A stretch of DNA of 64,000 nucleotides, from positions 449,452 through 513,451 of the forward strand of contig NZ_OZ242338.1 in NCBI RefSeq assembly GCF_965208475.1, in the 5' to 3' direction. The notes below the pieces were generated by a model that saw only the letters and a program-made list of their open reading frames with translations, was not told the origin of the DNA and made no database searches. Below are positions 21,049 through 62,716 of the stretch, one piece after another. Source of the stretch: Candidatus Poriferisocius sp. GTDB taxonomy: Bacteria; Actinomycetota; Acidimicrobiia; Acidimicrobiales; Bin134. Position 1 is the stretch's first letter. Each line of letters starts with the position of its first letter. Both the position numbers and the translations under genes were made by a program.

Positions 21049-22380
21049 TCAGCTCAATAGCAGTTGTTTGGAGCCTTCGGGCTGCCAGGTGGTGATTCCC
21101 TTTTCGGGGAAGGCGTCGGGAAAAGCTTTGGGGTTGGATTGAGATCGGGCGAGGGATGGCCCTGAGCGTGCCTGCCCAGAGGGGAATTCGGCGTAGGGCT
21201 TAGGTGGTGGTCGTAGTTCGTAGGCACCGTTCCGGTCTCTGCTCACGACCCAGCCGTCGTCGTGGATGTTGTGGTGGCAGCTCTTGCAGACCAGCACTAG
21301 GTTGTCGATGTCGGAGCGCCCGCCTTTGAGCCATTCTTGGATGTGGTGGGCCTCGCACCAAACGGCTGATCGTCCGCATCCGATGCAGTGTTTGTCGCGG
21401 ATGATGAGGGCGGCTCTTTGGGCTTCGGTGGCTAAGCGGTGTTTGCGCCCCACCCACAGTTCCTGTCCTTGGGTGTTGAACACGGTGGGCACGATGTCGG
21501 CGTTGCACGCCAGCCTCAGGACCTCGTCAACCGGCAGGGGCGTGCCGTCAAGCAGGCGGGCATCAGCAAGCTTGTGGTTCAGCGCGTCCCACTCGGCCGT
21601 CAATATCAGCGTGGTGCCGTGGGGTTTGCGGTCTTTGGTGTCGGCGCAAACCAAGTGTTCGAGCGCGTCGGCCATCTGTTGGTCGAACGCGGTCTGGTCG
21701 CCGGCCTTGCTGTCGTTTCGCTGGCGGCGCACCTCGTCGGCCAGCGCGGCCTCGATCCGGTTCCCCGCTACGGGGTCGAACCGGCCGTTCAAGATGAACA
21801 TGCCGTCGTCGGGCGACTTGAAGAAACTCAAGGAGCGGCGTTCCCGCTGCTTGGCCATCAACGACTTGCCGTCGTCGCCCGACCGCTCATGCTGGTGATC
21901 GCGCAGCGTCTTTGAGAACGTTCCGAAGTCCTCGCGCCGGGCCGCCTCCACCAGCACGGTTTCGTCGACCGGCCCCTGGGAGGCGGCCTTGGCGATCTGT
22001 TTGGCGTGGGCCTCGGGAATCTCGCCGGCGCCCAGAGCGTCGAGAGTCTCGGGAACCTGCGAGAGCTGGGAGGCGGTCTCCACCTCTCGGCGGGCCTGCT
22101 GCTTGGAGGCCTGTAGCTCTTCGAGGGCCACCCGGCGGGCCAATCCCTCGCCTCCCCGGCTGGCATAGGCGGCCAGCGTCTCCGTTTTCATCGCGGCCAG
22201 CCGGGCCTCGGCCTTTTTGATCAGCCCCAGCCGCGTCCGCAGCTCGCACAGCGACAGCCCGGTCACATCAACCGCCTCCGGCCAAACCGGCCCGGAAGGC
22301 TCTCGACCAGTCTGTTTCCCTTGTTCCAGGGGCCTAAACTCCATACATGCAAGTATACTGACCCCCGTGACAACAACCAT
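21049..22380 (-). CDS. DUF222/HNH endonuclease family protein (13E12-like)
   Basis: C-terminal HCIGCGRSAVWCEAHHIQEW...NLVLVCKSCHHNIHDDGW HNH motif after a long helical DUF222-like region. The family is commonly repeated or mobile in actinobacteria. Confidence 0.85.
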   Translation of the reverse strand: MVVVTGVSILACMEFRPLEQGKQTGREPSGPVWPEAVDVTGLSLCELRTRLGLIKKAEARLAAMKTETLAAYASRGGEGLARRVALEELQASKQQARREVETASQLSQVPETLDALGAGEIPEAHAKQIAKAASQGPVDETVLVEAARREDFGTFSKTLRDHQHERSGDDGKSLMAKQRERRSLSFFKSPDDGMFILNGRFDPVAGNRIEAALADEVRRQRNDSKAGDQTAFDQQMADALEHLVCADTKDRKPHGTTLILTAEWDALNHKLADARLLDGTPLPVDEVLRLACNADIVPTVFNTQGQELWVGRKHRLATEAQRAALIIRDKHCIGCGRSAVWCEAHHIQEWLKGGRSDIDNLVLVCKSCHHNIHDDGWVVSRDRNGAYELRPPPKPYAEFPSGQARSGPSLARSQSNPKAFPDAFPEKGITTWQPEGSKQLLLS

Positions 22381-22830: not shown

Positions 22831-24867
22831 ATGTGGACCCGTGAAACAGCGACGGTGTGTCAAAAGCTGCTAGCTATCGTGGCTGCCGTCGCTGTGGCCT
22901 CGGGGCTCGCTGGCTTTTCGGATCGCCCAGCCGCCGGGGCGCAGTCCGGGATAGTCAGCAACGAGTTGGTATGCGCGGTGCTGTTCGGTTTCGCCGGAGA
23001 GACGGTGCCGGTAGCCAAATCCGCTGACGGCGAGACGGTGCTCGCATCGGTCGAGTGGGGCTACAGCGCTAAACACGACCTGTGTTACCTGGTCCTCGAC
23101 GACACCGCCGTCAGCACGCTTCAAGCCAACCCCCCTACTACAACCTCGCAACTCACCACCGATGCCGACAAGACCGCTGCTGCCCAATGCCACAACGCCT
23201 ACAACCCCAACCGTGGTTTCGCCGCCGAACCCGTCCCCGTGGTCAAGTCCACCGACGGCCAAACCGTCCTCGCATCAGTCAAATGGGGCTACAGCCCCGA
23301 CTACGACCTCTGCTACCTCATCCTCGACGACACCGCCCAACAAACTCTCCTGACCCACCACCCCTGTGTGACCAACCCTGGCTCCCGCGAATGTAGGGGT
23401 GCCCCAACCATAATGGAAGTTAGGCCCAACCTTTTATGGTCACCAGATGGTACTCGAACAGCCTACGTCGAAACTACCTATACAAATTCTACGTCAGTAG
23501 AATCTATATATGTTGCTGACAGGTTAGGGAATAATTCAAAACGGATCGCCACCGGTTTCATTTATCCGAACCTTGTTCAAAAACTGACGTGGTCTCCAGA
23601 TGGTGTACAGTTAGCGTTCAGTCATGTCCATGGTCATGGCTACCGGGGCGGAATCAGAGTAGTCAATGCTGACGGCAGTAGCGATGTTGCTTGGCTGTCT
23701 CCTTGTGGCAATCGGCCGGTCTGGTCTCCAGATGCCACACGAATTGCCTTTATGGTCCGAGCAACCCGAAGCTGTAGTCAGACCCAGGGGACGTATGCTG
23801 TGACTGCGGATGGATCTAAACTTTATAAAATATCAGACTTCTTTACTCTAGGCATAGAGCACCTTAGATGGAATTCTGATGGCAGTGCCCCAGAACCATC
23901 GCCTGACTGGAGTATGCCAGGGATATCACCTAGCGGCGACCTCAGGGTCATCGTACAGCGTGGCTTCAAGGACAATGAGATGTTTGTTAGCGATGGCTCA
24001 TTAACTATATCTATAGGTAAGGGTACTAGCCCACACTGGTCTCCCGATGAAAGACATATTGTTTATTTGGCTGGAGGCAAATATTCCCTAGATGACGGTT
24101 TCCTCCAAGATAATGGCGATACCATTTTTGTTGTAGGTTCTGACGGTTCTGATAGAAGAGAAATCGTTCGTATAGCAGATTTGCCCAAATCTTCTGATCC
24201 CATTTACAACACTTGTTGCACATGGTCTTTTGTTGCAATCGATCCTTTCTCTTCTTTGCCGATGCAGATCATTCCCGGTGAAGATCTTATAGCCGTCAGG
24301 ACTCTTGGAATAGAATCTTGTTCTTCTTCTGAGTATGACTGCATGTCTTATCGGAGTTATCATTATCGAACTTTCTTGGTAGAAATGCCTGTGCAGTCTA
24401 GAACCAAGGCATTCAAACCGAACTCAGCCTTGACACCACTCGAGGCGTTTACTTACCGCGCGGTGTTATCTGCCTTCTACACCGCTACCGGCGGTCGCCA
24501 TTGGTCCAACAATGCCAACTGGAACACCAATAATCCCTTCCACACCTGGCACGGTATCCAGACCGAGGCCAATGGGAGGCTCACCGGCCTCTCCCTCTCC
24601 GGCAACAACCTTACCGGCCCGATCCCCGAACAGCTTGGCAACCTGACCGGCCTCACCACCCTCTATCTCCAGGACAACAGCCTCACCGGCGCTATCCCCG
24701 AGCAACTGGGTAACCTCACCGAACTTGTGTACTTCTACACGTCGGGCAACAACTTATGTCTGCCGCCTAGCCTGAGGACTTGGCACAGCACAATTGAGAA
24801 CAAAGATCCAGTCCCCACATGCGGAACAACTCCAGAAGAGCGCCAAGCTCTCACCACCATCTACTGA
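22831..24867 (+). CDS. Secreted chimeric protein: duplicated N-terminal module + TolB-like beta-propeller + C-terminal leucine-rich repeats
   Basis: Signal-like N-terminus (LLAIVAAVAVASGLAG). Two copies of a roughly 41-aa module. WSPDG-type repeats (LWSPDGTRTAY, TWSPDGVQLAF, VWSPDATRIAF, HWSPDERHIVY). LRR cap plus repeats (WSNNANW...WHGIQTEANGRLTGLSLSGNNLTGPIPEQLGNLTGLTTLYLQDNSLTGAIPEQLGNLT). Confidence 0.8.
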   Translation: MWTRETATVCQKLLAIVAAVAVASGLAGFSDRPAAGAQSGIVSNELVCAVLFGFAGETVPVAKSADGETVLASVEWGYSAKHDLCYLVLDDTAVSTLQANPPTTTSQLTTDADKTAAAQCHNAYNPNRGFAAEPVPVVKSTDGQTVLASVKWGYSPDYDLCYLILDDTAQQTLLTHHPCVTNPGSRECRGAPTIMEVRPNLLWSPDGTRTAYVETTYTNSTSVESIYVADRLGNNSKRIATGFIYPNLVQKLTWSPDGVQLAFSHVHGHGYRGGIRVVNADGSSDVAWLSPCGNRPVWSPDATRIAFMVRATRSCSQTQGTYAVTADGSKLYKISDFFTLGIEHLRWNSDGSAPEPSPDWSMPGISPSGDLRVIVQRGFKDNEMFVSDGSLTISIGKGTSPHWSPDERHIVYLAGGKYSLDDGFLQDNGDTIFVVGSDGSDRREIVRIADLPKSSDPIYNTCCTWSFVAIDPFSSLPMQIIPGEDLIAVRTLGIESCSSSEYDCMSYRSYHYRTFLVEMPVQSRTKAFKPNSALTPLEAFTYRAVLSAFYTATGGRHWSNNANWNTNNPFHTWHGIQTEANGRLTGLSLSGNNLTGPIPEQLGNLTGLTTLYLQDNSLTGAIPEQLGNLTELVYFYTSGNNLCLPPSLRTWHSTIENKDPVPTCGTTPEERQALTTIY

Positions 24868-54821: not shown

Positions 54822-55610
54822 ATGCCTATAGCCAAAGTCCGCGACCTCGACCTGTACTTCGAACTGCACGGTTCGGGGTCGCCGTTGCTCAACATCAGCG
54901 GCAGCGGGGGCGACCTGCGCATGACCGCCCCCGACCTGAACCCTCTCAATGGGGCCTTCACCGTGGCCCACTACGACCAGCGGGGCCTGGGCCAGACCTC
55001 CACGCCGCCGCTGCCGTGGACCATGGCCGACTACGCCGCCGACGCGGTTGGCTTTATGGACTTTCTGGGCTGGGACTCGGCGCCGGTGGTGGGCACCAGC
55101 TTCGGCGGGATGGTGGGCATGAACATGGCCGTGCTCCATCCGGGCCGTATCAGCAAACTGGTGCTCAACTGCACCTCGCCGGGCGGCCCCGACTACAGCT
55201 CATGGCCGCTGCACACCCTGGCCGATCTCGAACCCGACGAGCGAGCCGAGGTGGCGCTGGAGGTCATGGACACCCGCTATGAGCGGGGCGGACCGCTGCC
55301 CCCCGGCGTGGAGGCGTTCGTGACCACCGCCCGCCCCGACGGCCCCGCCCTGCCGCTCAACACCCCCGGCGCGCTCGGCCAGCTCGAGGCCCGCCGAGGC
55401 CACGACGTGGTCGACCGCCTCGGCGAGATAGACGTGCCCACGCTGGTGTGCGCCGGCATCCACGACGGCATCGCCCCTATGCGCAACAGCGAGCTCCTGC
55501 GCGACCGCATCCCCAACGCCCGCCTCGCCGCTTTCGACGGCGGCCACATCTTCATGGTGCAAGACCCCACCGCCTACCCCGCCATCTTGGATTTCCTCAC
55601 CGAAGACTGA
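54822..55610 (+). CDS. Alpha/beta hydrolase fold protein
   Basis: Start at ATG 54822 (MPIAKVRDLDLYFELHGSG). Nucleophile elbow GTSFGG and C-terminal GGH. Confidence 0.8.
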   Translation: MPIAKVRDLDLYFELHGSGSPLLNISGSGGDLRMTAPDLNPLNGAFTVAHYDQRGLGQTSTPPLPWTMADYAADAVGFMDFLGWDSAPVVGTSFGGMVGMNMAVLHPGRISKLVLNCTSPGGPDYSSWPLHTLADLEPDERAEVALEVMDTRYERGGPLPPGVEAFVTTARPDGPALPLNTPGALGQLEARRGHDVVDRLGEIDVPTLVCAGIHDGIAPMRNSELLRDRIPNARLAAFDGGHIFMVQDPTAYPAILDFLTED

Positions 55611-55638
55611 GAGCTTCGTTTCGCTCTACCGTGGTGGC

Positions 55639-56181
55639 GTGGACCGGGATCGGGCGCTCAAGACGCTGGGGCTGGAAAAGGGCGCTCACCCCGACGACAT
55701 CAACCGGGCCTACCGGGCGCTGATCCGCCAGGCCCACCCCGATGCCGGGGGCAGCACCACGGCGGCCGCCCGCATCACCGAGGCCTACCACTGGCTCCAG
55801 CGGGCTGGCACACCTCCGCCGGGCCCGTCCAAGTCGTCGCCACCCAAGCCGGATACGCCTGCCGAAGCGAATACCGACGATAGCCTGGTTCTTCACTTGC
55901 CAGCCGGAGATGTATTTGCCCGGTTGGTCGAAGCAGGCCACGACTTGGGCGAGGTCAGCTACATCGACCCCGCCGCAGGCATGGTCCAAGTCACGTTCAC
56001 CGCTGACAATGGAGTGGTGTGCCAATTGGCCGCCACCGTGCAGTCGACCTCAGTACCCGGCTCGCGCCAATTCGACACCCAGGTGGAGTTCACCCTCGAC
56101 CCGCTGGCCAGCGGGCAAGCACCCCCCATTGGGCGAGTCGTCGCCAGCTTGGTCCGCCTGGTCCGCGAGACGTCGATCTGA
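55639..56181 (+). CDS. J-domain (DnaJ-like) protein
   Basis: LGLEKGAHPDDINRAYRALIRQAHPDAGG carries the HPD tripeptide. The C-terminal domain is unassigned. Confidence 0.75.
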   Translation: MDRDRALKTLGLEKGAHPDDINRAYRALIRQAHPDAGGSTTAAARITEAYHWLQRAGTPPPGPSKSSPPKPDTPAEANTDDSLVLHLPAGDVFARLVEAGHDLGEVSYIDPAAGMVQVTFTADNGVVCQLAATVQSTSVPGSRQFDTQVEFTLDPLASGQAPPIGRVVASLVRLVRETSI

Positions 56182-56234
56182 GCCCAATCAACTCCAGCCA
56201 AACTGTCACTGACCGTTCATAGGGTAATTGGCCC

Positions 56235-56408
56235 ATGTCGGATGCACTCGTGTCACCCCGGCCCTGCGATGGCATCGCCTTCGTACTCGGCTCCGGCGAC
56301 CTCCAGGTGATGGGTGGCACCTGCCAGCACCGCTTTGAGCACGCCGTCCCCATGCTCTCCCGTCCCACTGCTCCCCGCCTAAGCCTCACCTTCCGCCACG
56401 ACGACTGA
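56235..56408 (+). CDS. Possible 57-aa ORF upstream of the helicase gene
   Basis: ATG..TGA ORF found by hand (below the track cutoff), ending 18 nt before the helicase ATG. It has no recognisable family and could be non-coding leader. Confidence 0.25.
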   Translation: MSDALVSPRPCDGIAFVLGSGDLQVMGGTCQHRFEHAVPMLSRPTAPRLSLTFRHDD

Positions 56409-56426
56409 CAGAGGGAGTCTCCGAAA

Positions 56427-58505
56427 ATGTCCAACCAGCAAGCAGAGAATTTTGCCGCTGAAGCCCAACTTTGCCTGCGAGCGCTGACGGCCAATCAGTC
56501 GTCTGCCTTTCGCCCCGGACAGTTGGAAGCCATTGAACAACTGGTCTTGCGGCGGAAAAGGGTGCTCTTGGTTCAGCGAACTGGTTGGGGAAAGAGCGCG
56601 GTCTATTTCATTGCCACTCGCCTCCTGCGAGACCGCGGCGCTGGCCCCACTCTGTTGGTATCTCCCCTGCTGGCGCTGATGCGGAACCAGATCGAGGCCG
56701 CACGGCGCATGGGAGTGCGGGCGGCAACCATCAATAGTTCAAACCAAGAGGAATGGGATGGGGTCTACGCCAAAATCGCTTCTGACCAGATCGATGTTCT
56801 TTTGATCTCGCCAGAACGGCTGGCCAACCGGGAATTCCGAAGTGCCCACCTACCATCGCTAACCCAGCGTGGCGGCCTGCTGGTGGTCGACGAAGTCCAC
56901 TGCATTTCCGACTGGGGACACGACTTTCGTCCCGACTACCGGCGGATCAAGGGAGTCTTAGACCTGCTCCCCCATGGAATTCCCGTGTTGGGCTGCACCG
57001 CGACGGCCAATAACCGGGTCGTGGACGACGTTGCCGAACAGCTTGGAACCGAATTGGTGCCCATTCGAGGGCCCCTTGGTCGTGATGGGTTGCAACTGCG
57101 TGTCTTTGCACCAGCCCCCCAGCAGAAGCGACTGGCGTGGCTGGCGGAGACGATCCCCAGGCTCCCCGGAACTGGCATCGTCTATTGCCTCACGGTCCGA
57201 GATGCCGAGCGAGTCGCTTCCTGGCTTATCTCCCAGGGGATTAACGCGGTCGCCTACACAGGAGGTTCAGACAATGACCACCGATTGGAAGCCGAACAGC
57301 AGCTCCTGAGCAACCAGAAGAAGGTCGTCGCGGCGACTTCCGCGCTAGGGATGGGATTCGACAAACCCGACCTATCATTCGTCATCCACTATCAGGCACC
57401 GGGCTCCCCCATCGCCTACTACCAGCAGGTAGGGCGGGCCGGGCGGGCGCTAGCCGAGTCGTGGGGCATCCTTCTCCAGGGTTACGAGGATGCTGATATT
57501 CAAAGCTTTTTTGTTAACACGGCGTTCCCTACCGCTGACCAGGCTCACAAGATTGTCGGCCTGCTCGAGCAAACGGCAGTGCCCATGAAGCTCTCTGATA
57601 TCGAGCGGGAGGTGAACATTCGGCGTTCGCGGCTTGAACGGCTCCTGAAGATCCTTGAAGTCGACAGTGCCATTGAGCGTGTCGACTCTGGCTGGCAGCG
57701 GACGCTTCAACCTTGGAGCTACGACAGCGAGCGGGTAGAGGCGGTAACTGCACTGCGGCGGGAAGAACAGGCACAGATGGCGGAATACGCGAGGGCTGAC
57801 CAGTGCCGAATGGAGCTGCTTAGGTCGTATTTGGACGACTCACAGGCTCATCCCTGTGGAATCTGCGACAACTGTCTTGCAGACCACAGAGAGCTCTCGG
57901 TGAGCACCCATGCAGTTCAGGCCGCAGTGGACTTTCTTCGAGGGACAGAACTTACGCTTGAGCCCCGAAAGCAGATCCCTGGCGATGGCAGGATTCCGAA
58001 AGACCACCTCTGCGAACCTGGGCGCGTGCTTGCCCTTTGGGGTGATGGTGGGTGGGGAGAGCTCATTCAAAGCGGCAAAGCCGAAGGACACTTTGACGAA
58101 GAACTGGTCGAGGCTTCAGCAGGCCTGATCAGCGAACGCTGGAGACCTGATCCCGCACCCACCTGGGTGACCTATGTTCCCTCCCTCAGACATCCCGAAC
58201 TTGTCCGAGGTTTCGCCCGACGCATCGCCCAGAAGCTGGCCATTCCGTGCCATGATGCGGTTGTCAAGATCCACGACACTCAGCCGCAGAAGCACATGCA
58301 GAACAGCGCCCAGCAATACGTAAACATCAAAGATGCTTTCAGGGTCGTCCCAGAGACCCCTCTTGGTCCCGTGCTGCTTGTGGACGACATTGTGGATTCC
58401 CGATGGACCTTCACCGTGATCACATCTCTGCTGCGAAGCGCCGGAATCGGACCGGTGTTTCCGTTCGCCATGGCCGATACGTCAGGAAGGTCTGCACGTG
58501 ACTGA
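56427..58505 (+). CDS. RecQ-like (RqlH-type) DNA helicase with tetracysteine Zn module and C-terminal ComF/phosphoribosyltransferase-like domain
   Basis: Motif I QRTGWGKS, motif II VVDEVHCISDWGHDFRPDY, motif VI YYQQVGRAGR. Zn module C..(x16)..CGICDNC. The C-terminal roughly 135 aa (VTYVPS...NIKDAFRV...VLLVDDIVDSRWT) have the ComF/PRTase layout. AGAGGGAG RBS upstream. Confidence 0.85.
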   Translation: MSNQQAENFAAEAQLCLRALTANQSSAFRPGQLEAIEQLVLRRKRVLLVQRTGWGKSAVYFIATRLLRDRGAGPTLLVSPLLALMRNQIEAARRMGVRAATINSSNQEEWDGVYAKIASDQIDVLLISPERLANREFRSAHLPSLTQRGGLLVVDEVHCISDWGHDFRPDYRRIKGVLDLLPHGIPVLGCTATANNRVVDDVAEQLGTELVPIRGPLGRDGLQLRVFAPAPQQKRLAWLAETIPRLPGTGIVYCLTVRDAERVASWLISQGINAVAYTGGSDNDHRLEAEQQLLSNQKKVVAATSALGMGFDKPDLSFVIHYQAPGSPIAYYQQVGRAGRALAESWGILLQGYEDADIQSFFVNTAFPTADQAHKIVGLLEQTAVPMKLSDIEREVNIRRSRLERLLKILEVDSAIERVDSGWQRTLQPWSYDSERVEAVTALRREEQAQMAEYARADQCRMELLRSYLDDSQAHPCGICDNCLADHRELSVSTHAVQAAVDFLRGTELTLEPRKQIPGDGRIPKDHLCEPGRVLALWGDGGWGELIQSGKAEGHFDEELVEASAGLISERWRPDPAPTWVTYVPSLRHPELVRGFARRIAQKLAIPCHDAVVKIHDTQPQKHMQNSAQQYVNIKDAFRVVPETPLGPVLLVDDIVDSRWTFTVITSLLRSAGIGPVFPFAMADTSGRSARD

Positions 58506-59517
58506 GCTTGGACGAATCGAGTGCGGCAGCACAGCAAGCCAGGACTCCCTCGCTGCGCTGCTGCTCTCCAGCAGACTGGCTTCAGAAGGCATCAAGCCGC
58601 TTACCTCCGCCGAGTACTGGCAGCACCCCGTACTGGCCGGCTCACCGAGCGCTCTCCTAGAAGCACCTCCAGAGACACTATGCAAGAAGCACGGAATTGC
58701 CAACGAAATGGCTTGCCGGATCACTGCCCTCTTTGATCGAGCTATCGCGCTGGCCTTTGAGGTCGACCGCTTGAAGCAGTCGGGCATCCAAACCCTCACT
58801 CCATATGATGAGGAGTACCCGTGCCAATTTCGGTACCGGCTAAGAGATAAGGCACCTGTGGTAATGCACGCCGTAGGTCGGCTTGAACTGCTGAACCGCC
58901 CGGGTCTGGGTGTGGTGGGAAGCAGGGATGTCAATGATGAAGGTGCCGAAGTGGCTAAAGGCGCTGCCCAACTGGCCTCCCGGCTGGGATATCCCGTGGT
59001 GTCAGGAGGTGCCCGCGGGGTTGATCGCCTTGCCATGAACGCGGCCCTTGGTGAGACAGGTACAGACGGCACTGTGGTCGGTTTTTTGGCCGATTCGATG
59101 GAACGACAGATCAAGCGCCCAGATACCCGGCGCGCCATACTCGGCGAGCATGTCCTGTTGTGCACCCCCTATGGACCAGATGCCCACTTCACCGCGGGCC
59201 GGGCCATGGGTAGGAACAAACTCATCTACGCCGGATCCCTGGTCACGCTGGTCGTGGCTAGCGACAAGAAGTCAGGCGGCACTTGGGTTGGAGCGGTCGA
59301 AGCGCTCAGGCATGGCTTTGGCCCGGTCGCCGTTTGGAGAGGTCTAGGTGAAGGGCCGGGTAATGCAGGCCTAGAGCAATTGGGGGCGAGGCCCATCGAC
59401 TCGCTAAGCGACCTCGAGACCTTGCTCATTGACGCTCAAAGCGATCCGAGCCTGACTGTGGATCAAGCCTCGATCCCAGAAGAGGCACAGCTCCCATTTC
59501 CCAGGAACTCGGCATAG
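58498..59517 (+). CDS. DprA/Smf-like (SLOG Rossmann) DNA-processing protein paralogue
   Basis: YDEEYPCQF...PVVMHAVG...GVVGSRDVNDEG...VVSGGARGVDRLAMNAAL...MGRNKLIYA...SGGT matches the DprA core motifs (YP..L, VGSR, SG.ARGID, RN..I, SG). GTG start overlaps the helicase 3' end by 8 nt. Confidence 0.8.
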   Translation: MTELGRIECGSTASQDSLAALLLSSRLASEGIKPLTSAEYWQHPVLAGSPSALLEAPPETLCKKHGIANEMACRITALFDRAIALAFEVDRLKQSGIQTLTPYDEEYPCQFRYRLRDKAPVVMHAVGRLELLNRPGLGVVGSRDVNDEGAEVAKGAAQLASRLGYPVVSGGARGVDRLAMNAALGETGTDGTVVGFLADSMERQIKRPDTRRAILGEHVLLCTPYGPDAHFTAGRAMGRNKLIYAGSLVTLVVASDKKSGGTWVGAVEALRHGFGPVAVWRGLGEGPGNAGLEQLGARPIDSLSDLETLLIDAQSDPSLTVDQASIPEEAQLPFPRNSA

Positions 59518-59543
59518 ACGCCTGAGACCGGGGTTTGAGATTG

Positions 59544-60641
59544 TCAGCTCAGATCGAAAACAGTCCTGATGCCGATGCTGGAGCGGAGGTCGTCTAGGCC
59601 GGCGTTTATCTCGTGGATGGGGCGGCGAGCGGTGATCATGGGCTCGAGGTCGAGGCGGCCGTTCTGCCACAGGGACAGCAGGCGGGGAACCTCGCGTTGG
59701 GAGTTGCAGCCGCCGAACATGCAGCCGAGCAGCTTCTTCTCGGTTATCAGATGCACGACTGCCGGGTTGATGGTCACGGAGTGCTCCAGGGCGGGAGCGC
59801 CCACCATCACCGTGGTGCCGCCATTGCGGGTGGCGGCCAGGCCGGCCTCCACCAGTGGGCCGGCCCCGGCGGCGTCGAAGGCGTAGTCCACTCCGATGCC
59901 GTTGGTGGCCTCCTGCACATGGGCCACCACGTCGGTGTCGGCCGGATCAACCAGATCGGTGGCCCCGAACGCCGCTGAGGCATTGCGGCGGTCGGCCACC
60001 GGGTCGGATGCGAAGATGCGGGACGCGCCGGCCAGCCGGGCGCCTTGCACCACCGACATGCCCACACCCCCCAGGCCCATCACCAACACGGTGGCGCCTT
60101 CCTCCACTTTGGCGGTATTGAGCACCGCGCCCACCCCGGTTTGAATTGCGCAGCCGATTACCGCGGCCACCTCCAGGGGCACATCCGGGTCGATCTTCAC
60201 CGCGGCGGAGGCAGCCACCATGGTCAGCTCGCCGAAACCGGCCACCCCCAGCCCTCGGTACACGGGCTGGCCGTCCACCGAGAACGGCACCGAGCCGTCG
60301 GGCATGGTGCCCATGAACATCGTCGCCGCCGACGCGCAGAGGGTTGTCTCACCCCGCACGCACCAGTAGCACACCCCGCACGGGCCGAACGGCGACAGCA
60401 TCACGTGGTCGCCCTCGGCCAGGGTGCCCACGCCTGGGCCCACTGCATCGACGATCCCGGCGGCCTCGTGGCCCAAGATGATCGGGGTGAGGCTCTCGGG
60501 GGCGTCGATCATGGTGAGGTCGGAGTGGCACAGACCGCAGTGGGTGACCCGCACCCGCACCTGCCCCGGTCCGGGATCAACGCATTGGACGTCGGCCATC
60601 ACCAATGGCGAGGCCGGCGATGCCAGCAGTGCTGCTCTCAT
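59544..60641 (-). CDS. Zn-dependent alcohol/formaldehyde-type dehydrogenase (class III-like MDR)
   Basis: GLCHSDL catalytic Zn site, C..C..C structural Zn region, GLGGVG NAD motif. Start at ATG 60641, preceded by AAGGAGAGG. Confidence 0.88.
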   Translation of the reverse strand: MRAALLASPASPLVMADVQCVDPGPGQVRVRVTHCGLCHSDLTMIDAPESLTPIILGHEAAGIVDAVGPGVGTLAEGDHVMLSPFGPCGVCYWCVRGETTLCASAATMFMGTMPDGSVPFSVDGQPVYRGLGVAGFGELTMVAASAAVKIDPDVPLEVAAVIGCAIQTGVGAVLNTAKVEEGATVLVMGLGGVGMSVVQGARLAGASRIFASDPVADRRNASAAFGATDLVDPADTDVVAHVQEATNGIGVDYAFDAAGAGPLVEAGLAATRNGGTTVMVGAPALEHSVTINPAVVHLITEKKLLGCMFGGCNSQREVPRLLSLWQNGRLDLEPMITARRPIHEINAGLDDLRSSIGIRTVFDLS

Positions 60642-60660: not shown

Positions 60661-61419
60661 TTACCTCTTGTCGGCTTTCCAGCCGGTGGTGGCACCCGAC
60701 ACCATCCCGTAGGGGCCAGACGGCCATCGGAAGCAGTCCACCATGAGCTGATCGACCTCAGCCTGGCTGGCCACCCCCTCGGCCACCACCGCGTTGGCCT
60801 CGCGGATCATGGCGCCGTACACCCGGTTGGTGACGTAGCCCCAGCTCATGGCGGAGTCTTTGATGACCACAGGGTTCTTGCCCGCGGCGGCGGCCAGCCG
60901 GCAGATGGTTTCGGTGGTCTCATCAGAGGTCTGCGGGGCCCGCACGATCTCGGCCAGCTTCATCACCGGCGGCGGCGATGCCCAGTGCCAGCCGATCACC
61001 CGGTCGGGCCGGTCGGTGGCCACTGCCAGGGCCTGCACCGGATACCCGCTGGAGTTAGACGCCAATATCGTGTGCTCGGGGCACTGCTGGTCGAGGTCCC
61101 GGAATAGCCGGATCTTGAGATCCAAGCGCTCGGGAACCGCCTCGATGATCACATCGACCGCCGCCGCGGCATCCCGGTCGGCGGTGAAATCGATGCGGGC
61201 CAGCGCGGCCTCGCCTTCGGCTTCGCTCAGTTTGCCCCGGGCCACCGCCCCCCCGATGCCGAACCGGCCCCCGGACACCAACTCGGGTGCCGCCGCCACT
61301 ACCTCGGGGTCGAGGTCGTAGGCCACCACCGGGTGCCCGGCGATGGCCATCACCTGGGCGATGCCCGAGCCCATCACCCCCGAGCCGAAAACCCCGATCT
61401 TCTCTGAACCGCCGGTCAT
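60661..61419 (-). CDS. 3-hydroxyacyl-CoA dehydrogenase family protein
   Basis: IGVFGSGVMGSGIAQV Rossmann start and ASNSS..., PPPVMKLAEIV. ATG 61419 overlaps the upstream stop (ATGA). The 524-aa track ORF is a frame artefact. Confidence 0.85.
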   Translation of the reverse strand: MTGGSEKIGVFGSGVMGSGIAQVMAIAGHPVVAYDLDPEVVAAAPELVSGGRFGIGGAVARGKLSEAEGEAALARIDFTADRDAAAAVDVIIEAVPERLDLKIRLFRDLDQQCPEHTILASNSSGYPVQALAVATDRPDRVIGWHWASPPPVMKLAEIVRAPQTSDETTETICRLAAAAGKNPVVIKDSAMSWGYVTNRVYGAMIREANAVVAEGVASQAEVDQLMVDCFRWPSGPYGMVSGATTGWKADKR

Positions 61420-62132
61420 GTCAGGTGGGTGCTGAACCACGCCGCCATGCGAGACCAGCCGTCGGCCGCGGCCTCGGCGTTGTACGACGGGCGCTCGTCG
61501 CACAAGAACCCGTGATCGGCCTCGCCATAGCGCACAATATCGGTGGGCTGGGCGTTGCCCTCCAGGTCGGCCCGAAGCTGCTCTACCCCCTCGACTGGGA
61601 TCATGCCGTCGAGATCGCCGAACAGGCCCAGCCACGGGCAATGGAGATCCCCGTGGCGGTCGGCCAGCTTGGGCTGGCCGGGGGTGAACCCGTCGGTGAC
61701 GATGGCCCCGCCGTAGTAGGTGACCGCCGCACCCACCGGGCGGCTGATGGCGGTCAGAAAGGTCACCCGGCCACCCATGCAGAAACCGGTGATCCCCACC
61801 TTGCCAGAGGGAATCCCCTGGCCGGCCAGATAGTCGAGGGTGGCGTCGACGTCCATTAGGGAGTGCTGGTCGAGGAGGTTGCCCATCATCTCGAAGATCT
61901 TGTCCATCTCGTCGTAGCCGGCCACGTTGGTCTCGTAGCGGTGATACAGGTCGGGGGCCACCGCCAGATATCCCTCGGCGGCCACCCGCCGGGTTACGTC
62001 TTCGATATGGCCGTTCAGCCCGAAGGCCTCCATGATGACGATCACCGCAGCCTGCGGTTGGCCATCGGGTCGGGCCACGTACAGCCTCATCGGGCCGTCG
62101 CCGGTAGTGAGTTCCACGTTCTCGGTTTGCAT
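61416..62132 (-). CDS. Dienelactone hydrolase family protein
   Basis: AVIVIMEAFGLNGHIEDVTRR..., nucleophile GFCMGG, and C-terminal ADHGF. Confidence 0.85.
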   Translation of the reverse strand: MQTENVELTTGDGPMRLYVARPDGQPQAAVIVIMEAFGLNGHIEDVTRRVAAEGYLAVAPDLYHRYETNVAGYDEMDKIFEMMGNLLDQHSLMDVDATLDYLAGQGIPSGKVGITGFCMGGRVTFLTAISRPVGAAVTYYGGAIVTDGFTPGQPKLADRHGDLHCPWLGLFGDLDGMIPVEGVEQLRADLEGNAQPTDIVRYGEADHGFLCDERPSYNAEAAADGWSRMAAWFSTHLT

Positions 62133-62167
62133 GGCTGCCGATGGTAGTTCTCGGTTCGACTGGTGGC

Positions 62168-62716
62168 CTATTGGCCGGGACGGGGAGCGTACAGCGGATC
62201 AGACCTGTCCCGGCTGCCCCGCAGGAATCGCTCATCGAACGGCCGGAACTGCTCCTCTCGCACCCATTCGGTGGTAGCCACTCGACGCGAGATGAGCCAC
62301 GGACCCCCGTTGCGCCGAGACACGTCGTCGATGAAGCGGAACCCCACTGACATGTTCAACTCCTGCGGCCCTCCCTCGGTCCAATGTCGGGCGATGCCGT
62401 GGGCTTCAGACCGGGCCCATTGCACCGCCTCCCCGCTTGCTTTCACCACCGGCTCCTGATCGATCTCGATTAGGACGTTCAATACCGTGTGGGTCGAGCC
62501 GGTATAGCGGCGCAGCAGTCGCTCGCTCCACACCAGGTATTCCTCCACTGTGCCCTCGAAGGTGCCGTGGGAATCGGTGGCGTCGGGGTGGTAGCAGGAT
62601 CGAACCAGATCCCTGTCGAGGCGGTCCACCCCCCGGCAGTACCGGTAGAGCAACTCGGTGATCTCCTGTTTGGCCAAGAGCTCGGCGATTTGGGCCTGCT
62701 TGTCCACGCCTGCCAT
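62168..62716 (-). CDS. SnoaL-like / NTF2-fold protein
   Basis: Start at ATG 62716. EITELLYRYCRGVDRLDRDLVRSCYHPDA is typical of SnoaL_4-type proteins. Confidence 0.72.
   Translation of the reverse strand: MAGVDKQAQIAELLAKQEITELLYRYCRGVDRLDRDLVRSCYHPDATDSHGTFEGTVEEYLVWSERLLRRYTGSTHTVLNVLIEIDQEPVVKASGEAVQWARSEAHGIARHWTEGGPQELNMSVGFRFIDDVSRRNGGPWLISRRVATTEWVREEQFRPFDERFLRGSRDRSDPLYAPRPGQ

Follow-up and report, generated by a model that had tools for sequence, protein, structure and literature searches.

A probable PsyrTA (RqlHI) gene pair at a fixed chromosomal site in a clade of sponge-symbiont Acidimicrobiia

Results

Two overlapping genes with the layout of PsyrTA

The stretch of DNA analysed here (64,000 nucleotides (nt); contig NZ_OZ242338.1, positions 449,452 to 513,451; "the window" below always means this whole stretch) comes from Candidatus Poriferisocius sp., a member of the Acidimicrobiales whose genus name refers to sponges (Porifera). 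It carries two overlapping genes on one strand, the first encoding a RecQ-like helicase fused to a phosphoribosyltransferase (PRTase) domain and the second a DprA-like protein (Table 1). RefSeq names the products 'RecQ family ATP-dependent DNA helicase' and 'DNA-processing protein DprA'. In all likelihood the two genes form an intact PsyrTA (RqlHI) module, a two-gene defence system of the toxin-antitoxin or abortive-infection type, and we therefore denote them psyrT and psyrA. A preliminary description of the locus had listed a RecQ-type core, a zinc module, an overlapping GTG start and DprA motifs, all of which were found in the two open reading frames (ORFs); it had also let the locus begin at position 56235, which lies outside the helicase gene and is the ATG of a short AlkB-like remnant.

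Table 1. Features of the psyrT-psyrA locus, in positions of the window (aa, amino acids)
Feature	Position	Strand	Description	Evidence
psyrT / rqlH	56427..58505	+	692 aa, ATG start; RecQ-like helicase with PRTase domain, toxin by homology	PADLOC PsyrT
psyrA / rqlI	58498..59517	+	339 aa, GTG start; DprA-like, antitoxin by homology	PADLOC PsyrA
psyrT-psyrA overlap	58498..58505	+	8 nt GTGACTGA, psyrT stop / psyrA start	
SF2 RecQ-type ATPase/helicase core	56427..57464	+	aa 1-346	Pfam DEAD, Helicase_C; limits after M. smegmatis RqlH
RecQ-type four-cysteine zinc-binding module	57738..57878	+	aa 438-484	PF16124, 32 bits
ComF/type-I PRTase-fold C-terminal domain	57909..58502	+	aa 495-692	AlphaFold2 (AF2) and Foldseek
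PRPP (phosphoribosyl pyrophosphate) loop VDDIVDSRWT	58380-58409	+	aa 652-661 of PsyrT	
AlkB-like 2OG-Fe(II) oxygenase remnant	56235..56408	+	57 aa	PF13532, 32 bits, profile positions 147-194 of 194

The helicase motifs of PsyrT are all intact (Walker A GWGKS at residues 53-57, DEVH at 155-158 and motif VI QQVGRAGR at 333-340), and a sequence search matched its core to RecQ cores in the PDB with an E-value of 2e-57. In Pfam the protein is recognised by DEAD (80 bits), Helicase_C (63 bits) and RecQ_Zn_bind (32 bits), all above threshold, and it also passes the NCBIfam RecQ-family model TIGR00614, which is a subfamily model (245.1 against a cut-off of 219.8). Its zinc ligands are Cys460, 477, 480 and 483, and the zinc module is preceded by the RqlH-specific linker of ~90 aa, in the arrangement published for RqlH. 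The partner protein carries the DprA motifs VGSR (at residue 140), SGGARGVD (169), RNKLIYA (239) and SGGT (259). It consists of an N-terminal helical domain (residues ~12-94) and a Rossmann/SLOG domain (~95-315), without a C-terminal helix-turn-helix (HTH). Its Pfam match to DNA_processg_A reaches 106 bits; a further match to SLOG cluster4 is weak.

Both proteins match the PADLOC models of the PsyrTA system over almost their entire length. PsyrT scores 902.3 bits against PDLC03928 (E 4.8e-272; residues 11-687 on model positions 6-686 of 689), and PsyrA 257.3 bits against PDLC03927 (E 6.7e-77; residues 14-309 on model positions 4-305 of 398). A chance match is excluded by hidden Markov model (HMM) E-values of this order (5e-272 and 7e-77). 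The second PADLOC match of PsyrA is a distant one, to the antitoxin ShosA at 78 bits.

The order of the genes agrees with this assignment, as toxin-first order, a common strand and overlapping genes, the layout expected of PsyrTA, are all present in the window pair. A Shine-Dalgarno-like AGGGAG lies 9-14 nt 5' of psyrT, and a GGAAGG site lies 5' of the psyrA GTG; the latter kind of site, taken with the 8-nt overlap, suggests that translation of the two genes may be coupled. A scan of positions 55500-59800 detected no sigma-70-like promoter and a single terminator-like match on the minus strand, which is below chance expectation. Scans of the whole window for tRNAs and Rfam families gave neither a tRNA integration site nor an RNA element.

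Assignments to better known families were tried and rejected. For a housekeeping RecQ, TIGR01389 gave 296.5 bits against a cut-off of 640.2, and Pfam found no HRDC domain. The DprA equivalog models were missed by a wide margin (TIGR00732, 80.6 against 191.15; PRK10736, 51.5 against 495), and so were those of ComF (TIGR00201, 16.5 against 233.55) and GntX (PRK11595, 21 against 304). ShosTA was set aside on the N-terminus of the toxin, which is a RecQ helicase, and on the score of the antitoxin (78 bits for ShosA against 257 for PsyrA).

Predicted folds of the toxin C-domain and of the antitoxin

The C-terminal domain of PsyrT is poorly visible to sequence methods. The Pfam model Pribosyltran gives only 19 bits, under its cut-off of 26.3, and a PDB sequence search with this domain alone returned no match, so that a fold search was needed. 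An AF2 model of residues 495-692, built with 45 homologues, has a mean pLDDT (predicted local distance difference test) of 89.4, and each of its top 50 Foldseek matches in the PDB is a type-I PRTase, including APRT and PurF. By TM-score the closest structure is H. pylori ComF (7p0h, TMq 0.54), followed by the toxin ShosT (8zvd, TMq 0.53; 8zvb was also matched). The modelled domain is a PRTase fold with a DIVD-type PRPP loop, and is predicted to be the toxic effector. The ComF/PRTase layout that the preliminary description had read into this domain was thus borne out by the model.

The AF2 model of PsyrA (pLDDT 86.6) is matched by Foldseek to DprA (3maj, 3uqz) and to the antitoxin ShosA (8zva, TMq 0.63). 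MoCo-carrier and LOG proteins, which belong to the SLOG superfamily, rank after these. The preliminary description was right in its guess of a defence module that is akin to ShosTA, the DprA-PRTase pair, and has a helicase in addition.

Relatives of the pair across phyla

Homologous loci were collected from one genome per species. At least 596 loci were found, of which the best 80 were examined, 74 of them with enough downstream sequence to judge the partner. These best 80 come from Acidimicrobiia, other Actinomycetota, Chloroflexota, Cyanobacteria, Proteobacteria, Verrucomicrobiota, Acidobacteriota, Spirochaetes and others. In 62 of the 74, psyrT is followed immediately by a gene for a PsyrA homologue on its own strand, and PsyrT stands alone in the other 12 (L009, L010, L011, L014, L023, L028, L030, L048, L056, L067, L075 and L079). 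Many of the solo genes belong to Actinomycetota, in agreement with a 2015 survey in which actinobacterial RqlH was nearly always solo (PMC4670107). No conserved alternative partner was seen 3' of the 12 solo genes, where mostly spurious high-GC ORFs are found. At one of these loci (L028) the PsyrT frame runs on for ~310 codons beyond the homologous region.

The antitoxin occurs in two forms of equal frequency. Among 66 loci (L001-L084 and L165), 33 have a short PsyrA of ~330-345 aa without a C-terminal HTH, like that of the window, and 33 a long one with 100-190 aa more. Fourteen of the short proteins come from Actinomycetota/Acidimicrobiia (including L081-L084) and about nine from Chloroflexota, the rest being scattered over phyla.

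Several relatives sit in mobile or defence contexts. Full-length homologues were found on 12 plasmids, haloarchaeal ones included. An E. coli IncF plasmid (NZ_OX030731.1, L165, 2667-12746) has the pair inserted into a type I restriction-modification (R-M) operon, with hsdS on one side, hsdR on the other and all genes on one strand; the window PsyrT is 49% identical to the plasmid protein over the full length, the LLVDDIVDS loop included, and the window PsyrA 34% identical over residues 5-302. In three other Acidimicrobiia (L167, L168 and L169, a group 63-65% identical) the pair occupies a common spot upstream of GFA/GMC-oxidoreductase genes, and the cargo there is variable: Type ISP R-M, E2-CBASS, Peptidase_M78, PIN/PhdYeFM, an rve integrase and transposases. 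The place resembles a defence hot spot. Full-length PsyrT was found in none of 50,697 phage records, which gave matches to the RecQ core only.

The genes flanking the pair in the window are shared by none of the 80 distant loci. Two points raised in the preliminary description can be judged from this survey: the two genes are commonly adjacent rather than rarely so, and the pair is conserved as a unit that is patchy across phyla and found elsewhere in defence and mobile contexts.

A foreign islet between housekeeping genes

The two genes differ in composition from their surroundings. Their GC contents are 0.59 (psyrT) and 0.60 (psyrA), and their GC contents at third codon positions (GC3) are 0.65 and 0.63. 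Six flanking ORFs were scored for comparison; five have a GC3 of 0.79-0.88 and one, an uncurated ORF call with 3HCDH domains, has 0.67. The same contrast is seen when three related genomes (L081, L082 and L084) are added to the window, with a GC3 of 0.63-0.69 in the pair and 0.74-0.93 in the flanking genes. The low GC3 covers exactly the two genes, as expected of the compositionally foreign islet that had been proposed.

The 3HCDH call itself (60661-62235, minus strand) is the longest ORF there, 524 aa, with 3HCDH domains in its C-terminal half only. Relatives have two separate calls at this position, a DLH protein of 238 aa and a 3HCDH protein of 252-265 aa, so the window ORF is either a fusion or an artefact of ORF calling.

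The three related genomes have a common order at the locus, namely H+-PPase, alpha/beta hydrolase, DnaJ-domain protein, AlkB-like oxygenase, PsyrT, PsyrA, a convergent ADH gene, 3HCDH and the genes beyond. PsyrT in these syntenic relatives is 87, 80 and 73% identical to the window copy, and the 8-nt overlap and the GTG start are the same in all three. The ratios of nonsynonymous to synonymous divergence (dN/dS), 0.11-0.22 for psyrT and 0.10-0.20 for psyrA, point to purifying selection. In family-level relatives, whose H+-PPase is 72-83% identical, the pair is absent at this site. In one of them (L101, ADH 55% identical) the DnaJ-domain and ADH genes lie only 22 bp apart; this junction is a possible empty site, which is only suggestive. 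An empty site was looked for in a close relative and was not found.

Given the persistently low GC3, the absence from family-level relatives, the synteny within the clade and the purifying selection, we conclude that the pair was acquired horizontally and has long been resident and maintained in the clade. At this site it forms a resident islet of two genes with housekeeping genes on either side; it is not a universal core locus and does not belong to a defence island here. The preliminary description had considered a universally syntenic core locus as the contrary case; universality did not hold, and there are mobile and defence links elsewhere, but a fixed site between housekeeping genes is indeed found within its own clade.

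Mosaic divergence within the pair

The pair (window 56427-59517) was compared with its closest relative (L081, 8001-11100). Synonymous divergence (dS) rises along the cassette: the helicase core has 0.15, the linker with the zinc module 0.41, the PRTase domain 0.76 and PsyrA 1.15, while the flanking genes lie at 0.36-0.39. From this mosaic, the PRTase domain and PsyrA share a history that is separate from that of the helicase core and more divergent. The cause is most likely recombination with a more distant allele, by which the antitoxin would have travelled jointly with the PRTase domain. Their joint divergence is consistent with the functional coupling of the two, as the published view is that the antitoxin controls the PRTase domain.

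A decayed AlkB-like gene next to psyrT

The AlkB-like remnant ends 18 nt 5' of psyrT. It is not part of the PsyrTA family, and its GC3 of 0.79 is host-like. Comparison by blastn and translation shows that it consists of the first 15 and the last 42 codons of a longer gene, from which an in-frame deletion has removed 459 nt (the 153 codons of the catalytic core), leaving the original start and stop in place. The full-length gene, of 210-218 aa, stands at the same place in L081, L082 and L084, its end lying anywhere from 18 nt upstream of the psyrT start to 8 nt past it. Microhomology at the deletion junction is at most 1 nt relative to L081 and uninformative.

One could imagine that in this clade the AlkB-like dioxygenase forms a three-gene operon with the pair and repairs a base lesion made by the PRTase, which, if true, would hint at the chemistry of the toxin. 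We consider this quite improbable: AlkB is adjacent to PsyrT in none of the 80 loci from other lineages, its composition is that of the host, and its catalytic core has been deleted here while PsyrTA is intact.

Other features of the window

Away from the pair, a dip in GC content to 0.51-0.54 (22.8-24.9 kb) corresponds to a gene for an eukaryote-like LRR/PD40 repeat protein of 678 aa (22831..24867, plus strand). It is adjoined by a DUF222-HNH endonuclease gene (21049..22380, minus strand).

Discussion

The family was characterised biochemically in M. smegmatis, whose RqlH (MSMEG_5935) is a DNA-dependent ATPase and 3'-5' helicase of 691 aa (Ordonez, Unciuleac & Shuman 2012; PMC3378886). It is built from an ATPase domain (residues 1-346), an RqlH-specific linker, a four-cysteine zinc domain (~435-499) and a ComF-like C-domain with a PRTase-like module; helicase activity resides in residues 1-505, the PRTase domain being dispensable for it, and homologues were noted in many phyla, including non-K-12 E. 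coli (PMC3378886). In E. coli F11, RqlH and RqlI behave as a toxin-antitoxin-like pair, in which the proteins interact and the genes form an operon (Russell & Mulvey 2015; PMC4670107). There the PRTase domain is genotoxic, causing SOS induction, filamentation and loss of viability, and mutation of DIVD abolishes the toxicity; toxicity needs the helicase part together with the PRTase domain, and the ATPase activity also restrains it (PMC4670107). In every case in that study rqlH is the first gene and rqlI the second, and the two often overlap (PMC4670107). The same pair was identified as a toxin-antitoxin system, PsyrTA, in P. syringae (Sberro et al. 2013), and PsyrTA was reported as phage-defensive in the screen of Millman et al. 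2022, where a construct with psyrA deleted could not be transformed. Both PADLOC and DefenseFinder include it among their defence systems.

The fused helicase-PRTase protein with a DprA-like partner is hence a known architecture, published as RqlH, RqlHI and PsyrTA and matched by PADLOC models for both genes, and only the host lineage is new. The preliminary description had offered the locus as an undescribed system, and this claim does not stand. It had cited M. smegmatis RqlH as having a distinct C-domain, although that protein has the same ComF/PRTase C-domain, and had not linked it to RqlHI and PsyrTA.

The present analysis directly supports the family membership, the intactness of the catalytic motifs, the folds of the two proteins, their arrangement as an operon, the purifying selection on them and their foreign composition. 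From this literature we can propose how the window pair might act. PsyrT's C-terminal PRTase domain would be the effector, binding PRPP through the DDIVD loop by analogy to E. coli RqlH and to ShosT, a toxin that has to bind PRPP to be toxic and that disturbs purine metabolism. Its activity would lead to DNA damage, SOS induction and filamentation, and PsyrA would bind PsyrT and hold it harmless. The proposed trigger is phage infection, which may free the PRTase activity through ssDNA (single-stranded DNA) replication intermediates or through a failing supply of antitoxin. For comparison, the related ShosA acts by way of ssDNA and RecA; it has been proposed that ssDNA of the phage titrates it, or that it is lost when the host is shut off. 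The freed PRTase would then arrest the infected cell. The helicase part, by homology a 3'-5' translocase on ssDNA, probably senses or tracks DNA and may also restrain the PRTase domain. The parts that such a mechanism needs are all intact in the window copy: Walker A, DEVH and motif VI, the four ligands of the zinc, the DDIVD loop, and the DprA motifs of the partner. By analogy with the studied members of the family, then, the window pair is expected to combine toxicity, neutralisation, a trigger and an anti-phage effect.

Several observations weigh against an intact defence module. The last ~90 positions of the PADLOC PsyrA model, its HTH region, have no counterpart in the window protein; what the short PsyrA proteins lack matches the HTH region, which E. 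coli RqlI can do without, its residues 1-320, with the HTH removed, being still fully active (PMC4670107). The surroundings give no sign of defence: five other window ORFs, none of them within 3 kb of the pair, had no match in PADLOC, and the seven ORFs flanking the pair, examined by a Pfam scan alone, had no recognisable defence or mobile-element domain, the neighbours being metabolic. The synteny, seen in no fewer than four clade genomes, would also fit a domesticated housekeeping role. Turning to the published systems, one study found that E. coli PsyrTA gave no phage protection either in its native host or when overexpressed.

A domesticated role in DNA repair is the sole serious alternative. 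Here RqlH would serve as the RecQ-type helicase of the lineage, and the task of its DprA-like partner would be RecA loading or the handling of ssDNA, with no function as toxin and antitoxin or in defence. That four genomes have the pair at one fixed site, flanked by the DnaJ-domain and ADH genes, would suit this, but the foreign GC3 is retained in all four, and the pair is absent at the site in family-level relatives. Purifying selection on both genes and the all-metabolic neighbours, with no defence genes among them, can be read in the same sense, whereas the dS of the cassette, well above that of the flanks and mosaic, argues against it, as do the patchy distribution across phyla and the defence and mobile contexts elsewhere. 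There are mycobacteria that have RqlH without a classical RecQ (Ordonez et al., PMC3378886), partnerless RqlH is frequent in Actinomycetota, and ShosA works via RecA. Against these stand the PRTase domain, which is dispensable for helicase activity and genotoxic in E. coli, and the RecQ and DprA equivalog models, whose scores are far under their cut-offs. On balance we regard a repair module as unlikely, and prefer an intact PsyrTA system.

Very improbable is the idea, also raised in the preliminary description, of a compact competence module for ssDNA uptake equivalent to ComFA, ComFC and DprA. Its appeal lies in the C-domain, whose best TM-score is to H. pylori ComF, and in the DprA fold of the partner; yet the comF, dprA and GntX models score far under their cut-offs, the helicase is of the RecQ and not the ComFA type, no other competence genes are found among the neighbours, and the family literature reports toxicity rather than uptake. 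Weakest of all, and extremely improbable, is that the helicase is DpdF of the Dpd (7-deazaguanine DNA modification/restriction) system: several PADLOC DpdF models do match it, with up to 322 bits and including two short ones over the C-domain, but the PsyrT model at 902 bits outranks every one of them, NCBIfam NF041063 gives 148.8 against a cut-off of 550, the neighbours (H+-PPase, hydrolase, DnaJ-domain, ADH and 3HCDH genes) include no dpd genes, and the partner is PsyrA.

Read as PsyrTA, the locus has little value as a discovery, since a standard defence annotator would call it and the architecture has been published since 2012. It adds a divergent actinobacterial PsyrTA whose short antitoxin lacks the HTH, in a group formerly believed to have RqlH nearly always on its own. 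It is also a case in which PsyrTA has kept a stable place on the chromosome, at a single site, across a clade of sponge-symbiont Acidimicrobiia.

Comparison with known systems

Of the described systems, PsyrTA/RqlHI is the one that the window pair resembles throughout: a protein of ~690 aa with a RecQ core, linker, four-cysteine zinc module and PRTase domain in this order, a DDIVD loop, an overlapping DprA-like gene, and matches to both HMMs. It differs in that its proteins are just 49% and 34% identical to those of the E. coli plasmid, in its PsyrA of 339 aa without HTH, as compared with enterobacterial proteins of 400-462 aa that have a C-terminal HTH, and in its actinobacterial host, where no defence island surrounds it. 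M. smegmatis RqlH, compared by its published description, has the same domain plan and nearly the same length (691 against 692 aa), but is reported without an RqlI partner, while the window helicase has one.

ShosTA (= Rst_DprA-PPRT) likewise combines a toxin carrying a PRTase domain with a DprA-like antitoxin, and is related to the window pair through the 78-bit match of PsyrA to ShosA and the fold match to 8zva. This sequence relationship is distant, however. The N-terminus of ShosT is a hydrolase/pyrophosphatase, whereas the window toxin has a RecQ helicase and a zinc module, and ShosA does not bind ShosT directly, whereas RqlI binds RqlH. Canonical RecQ, ComFC and DprA, finally, offer the same three folds, but in the window the parts are fused or paired, lack HRDC and RQC, and miss all of the equivalog cut-offs.

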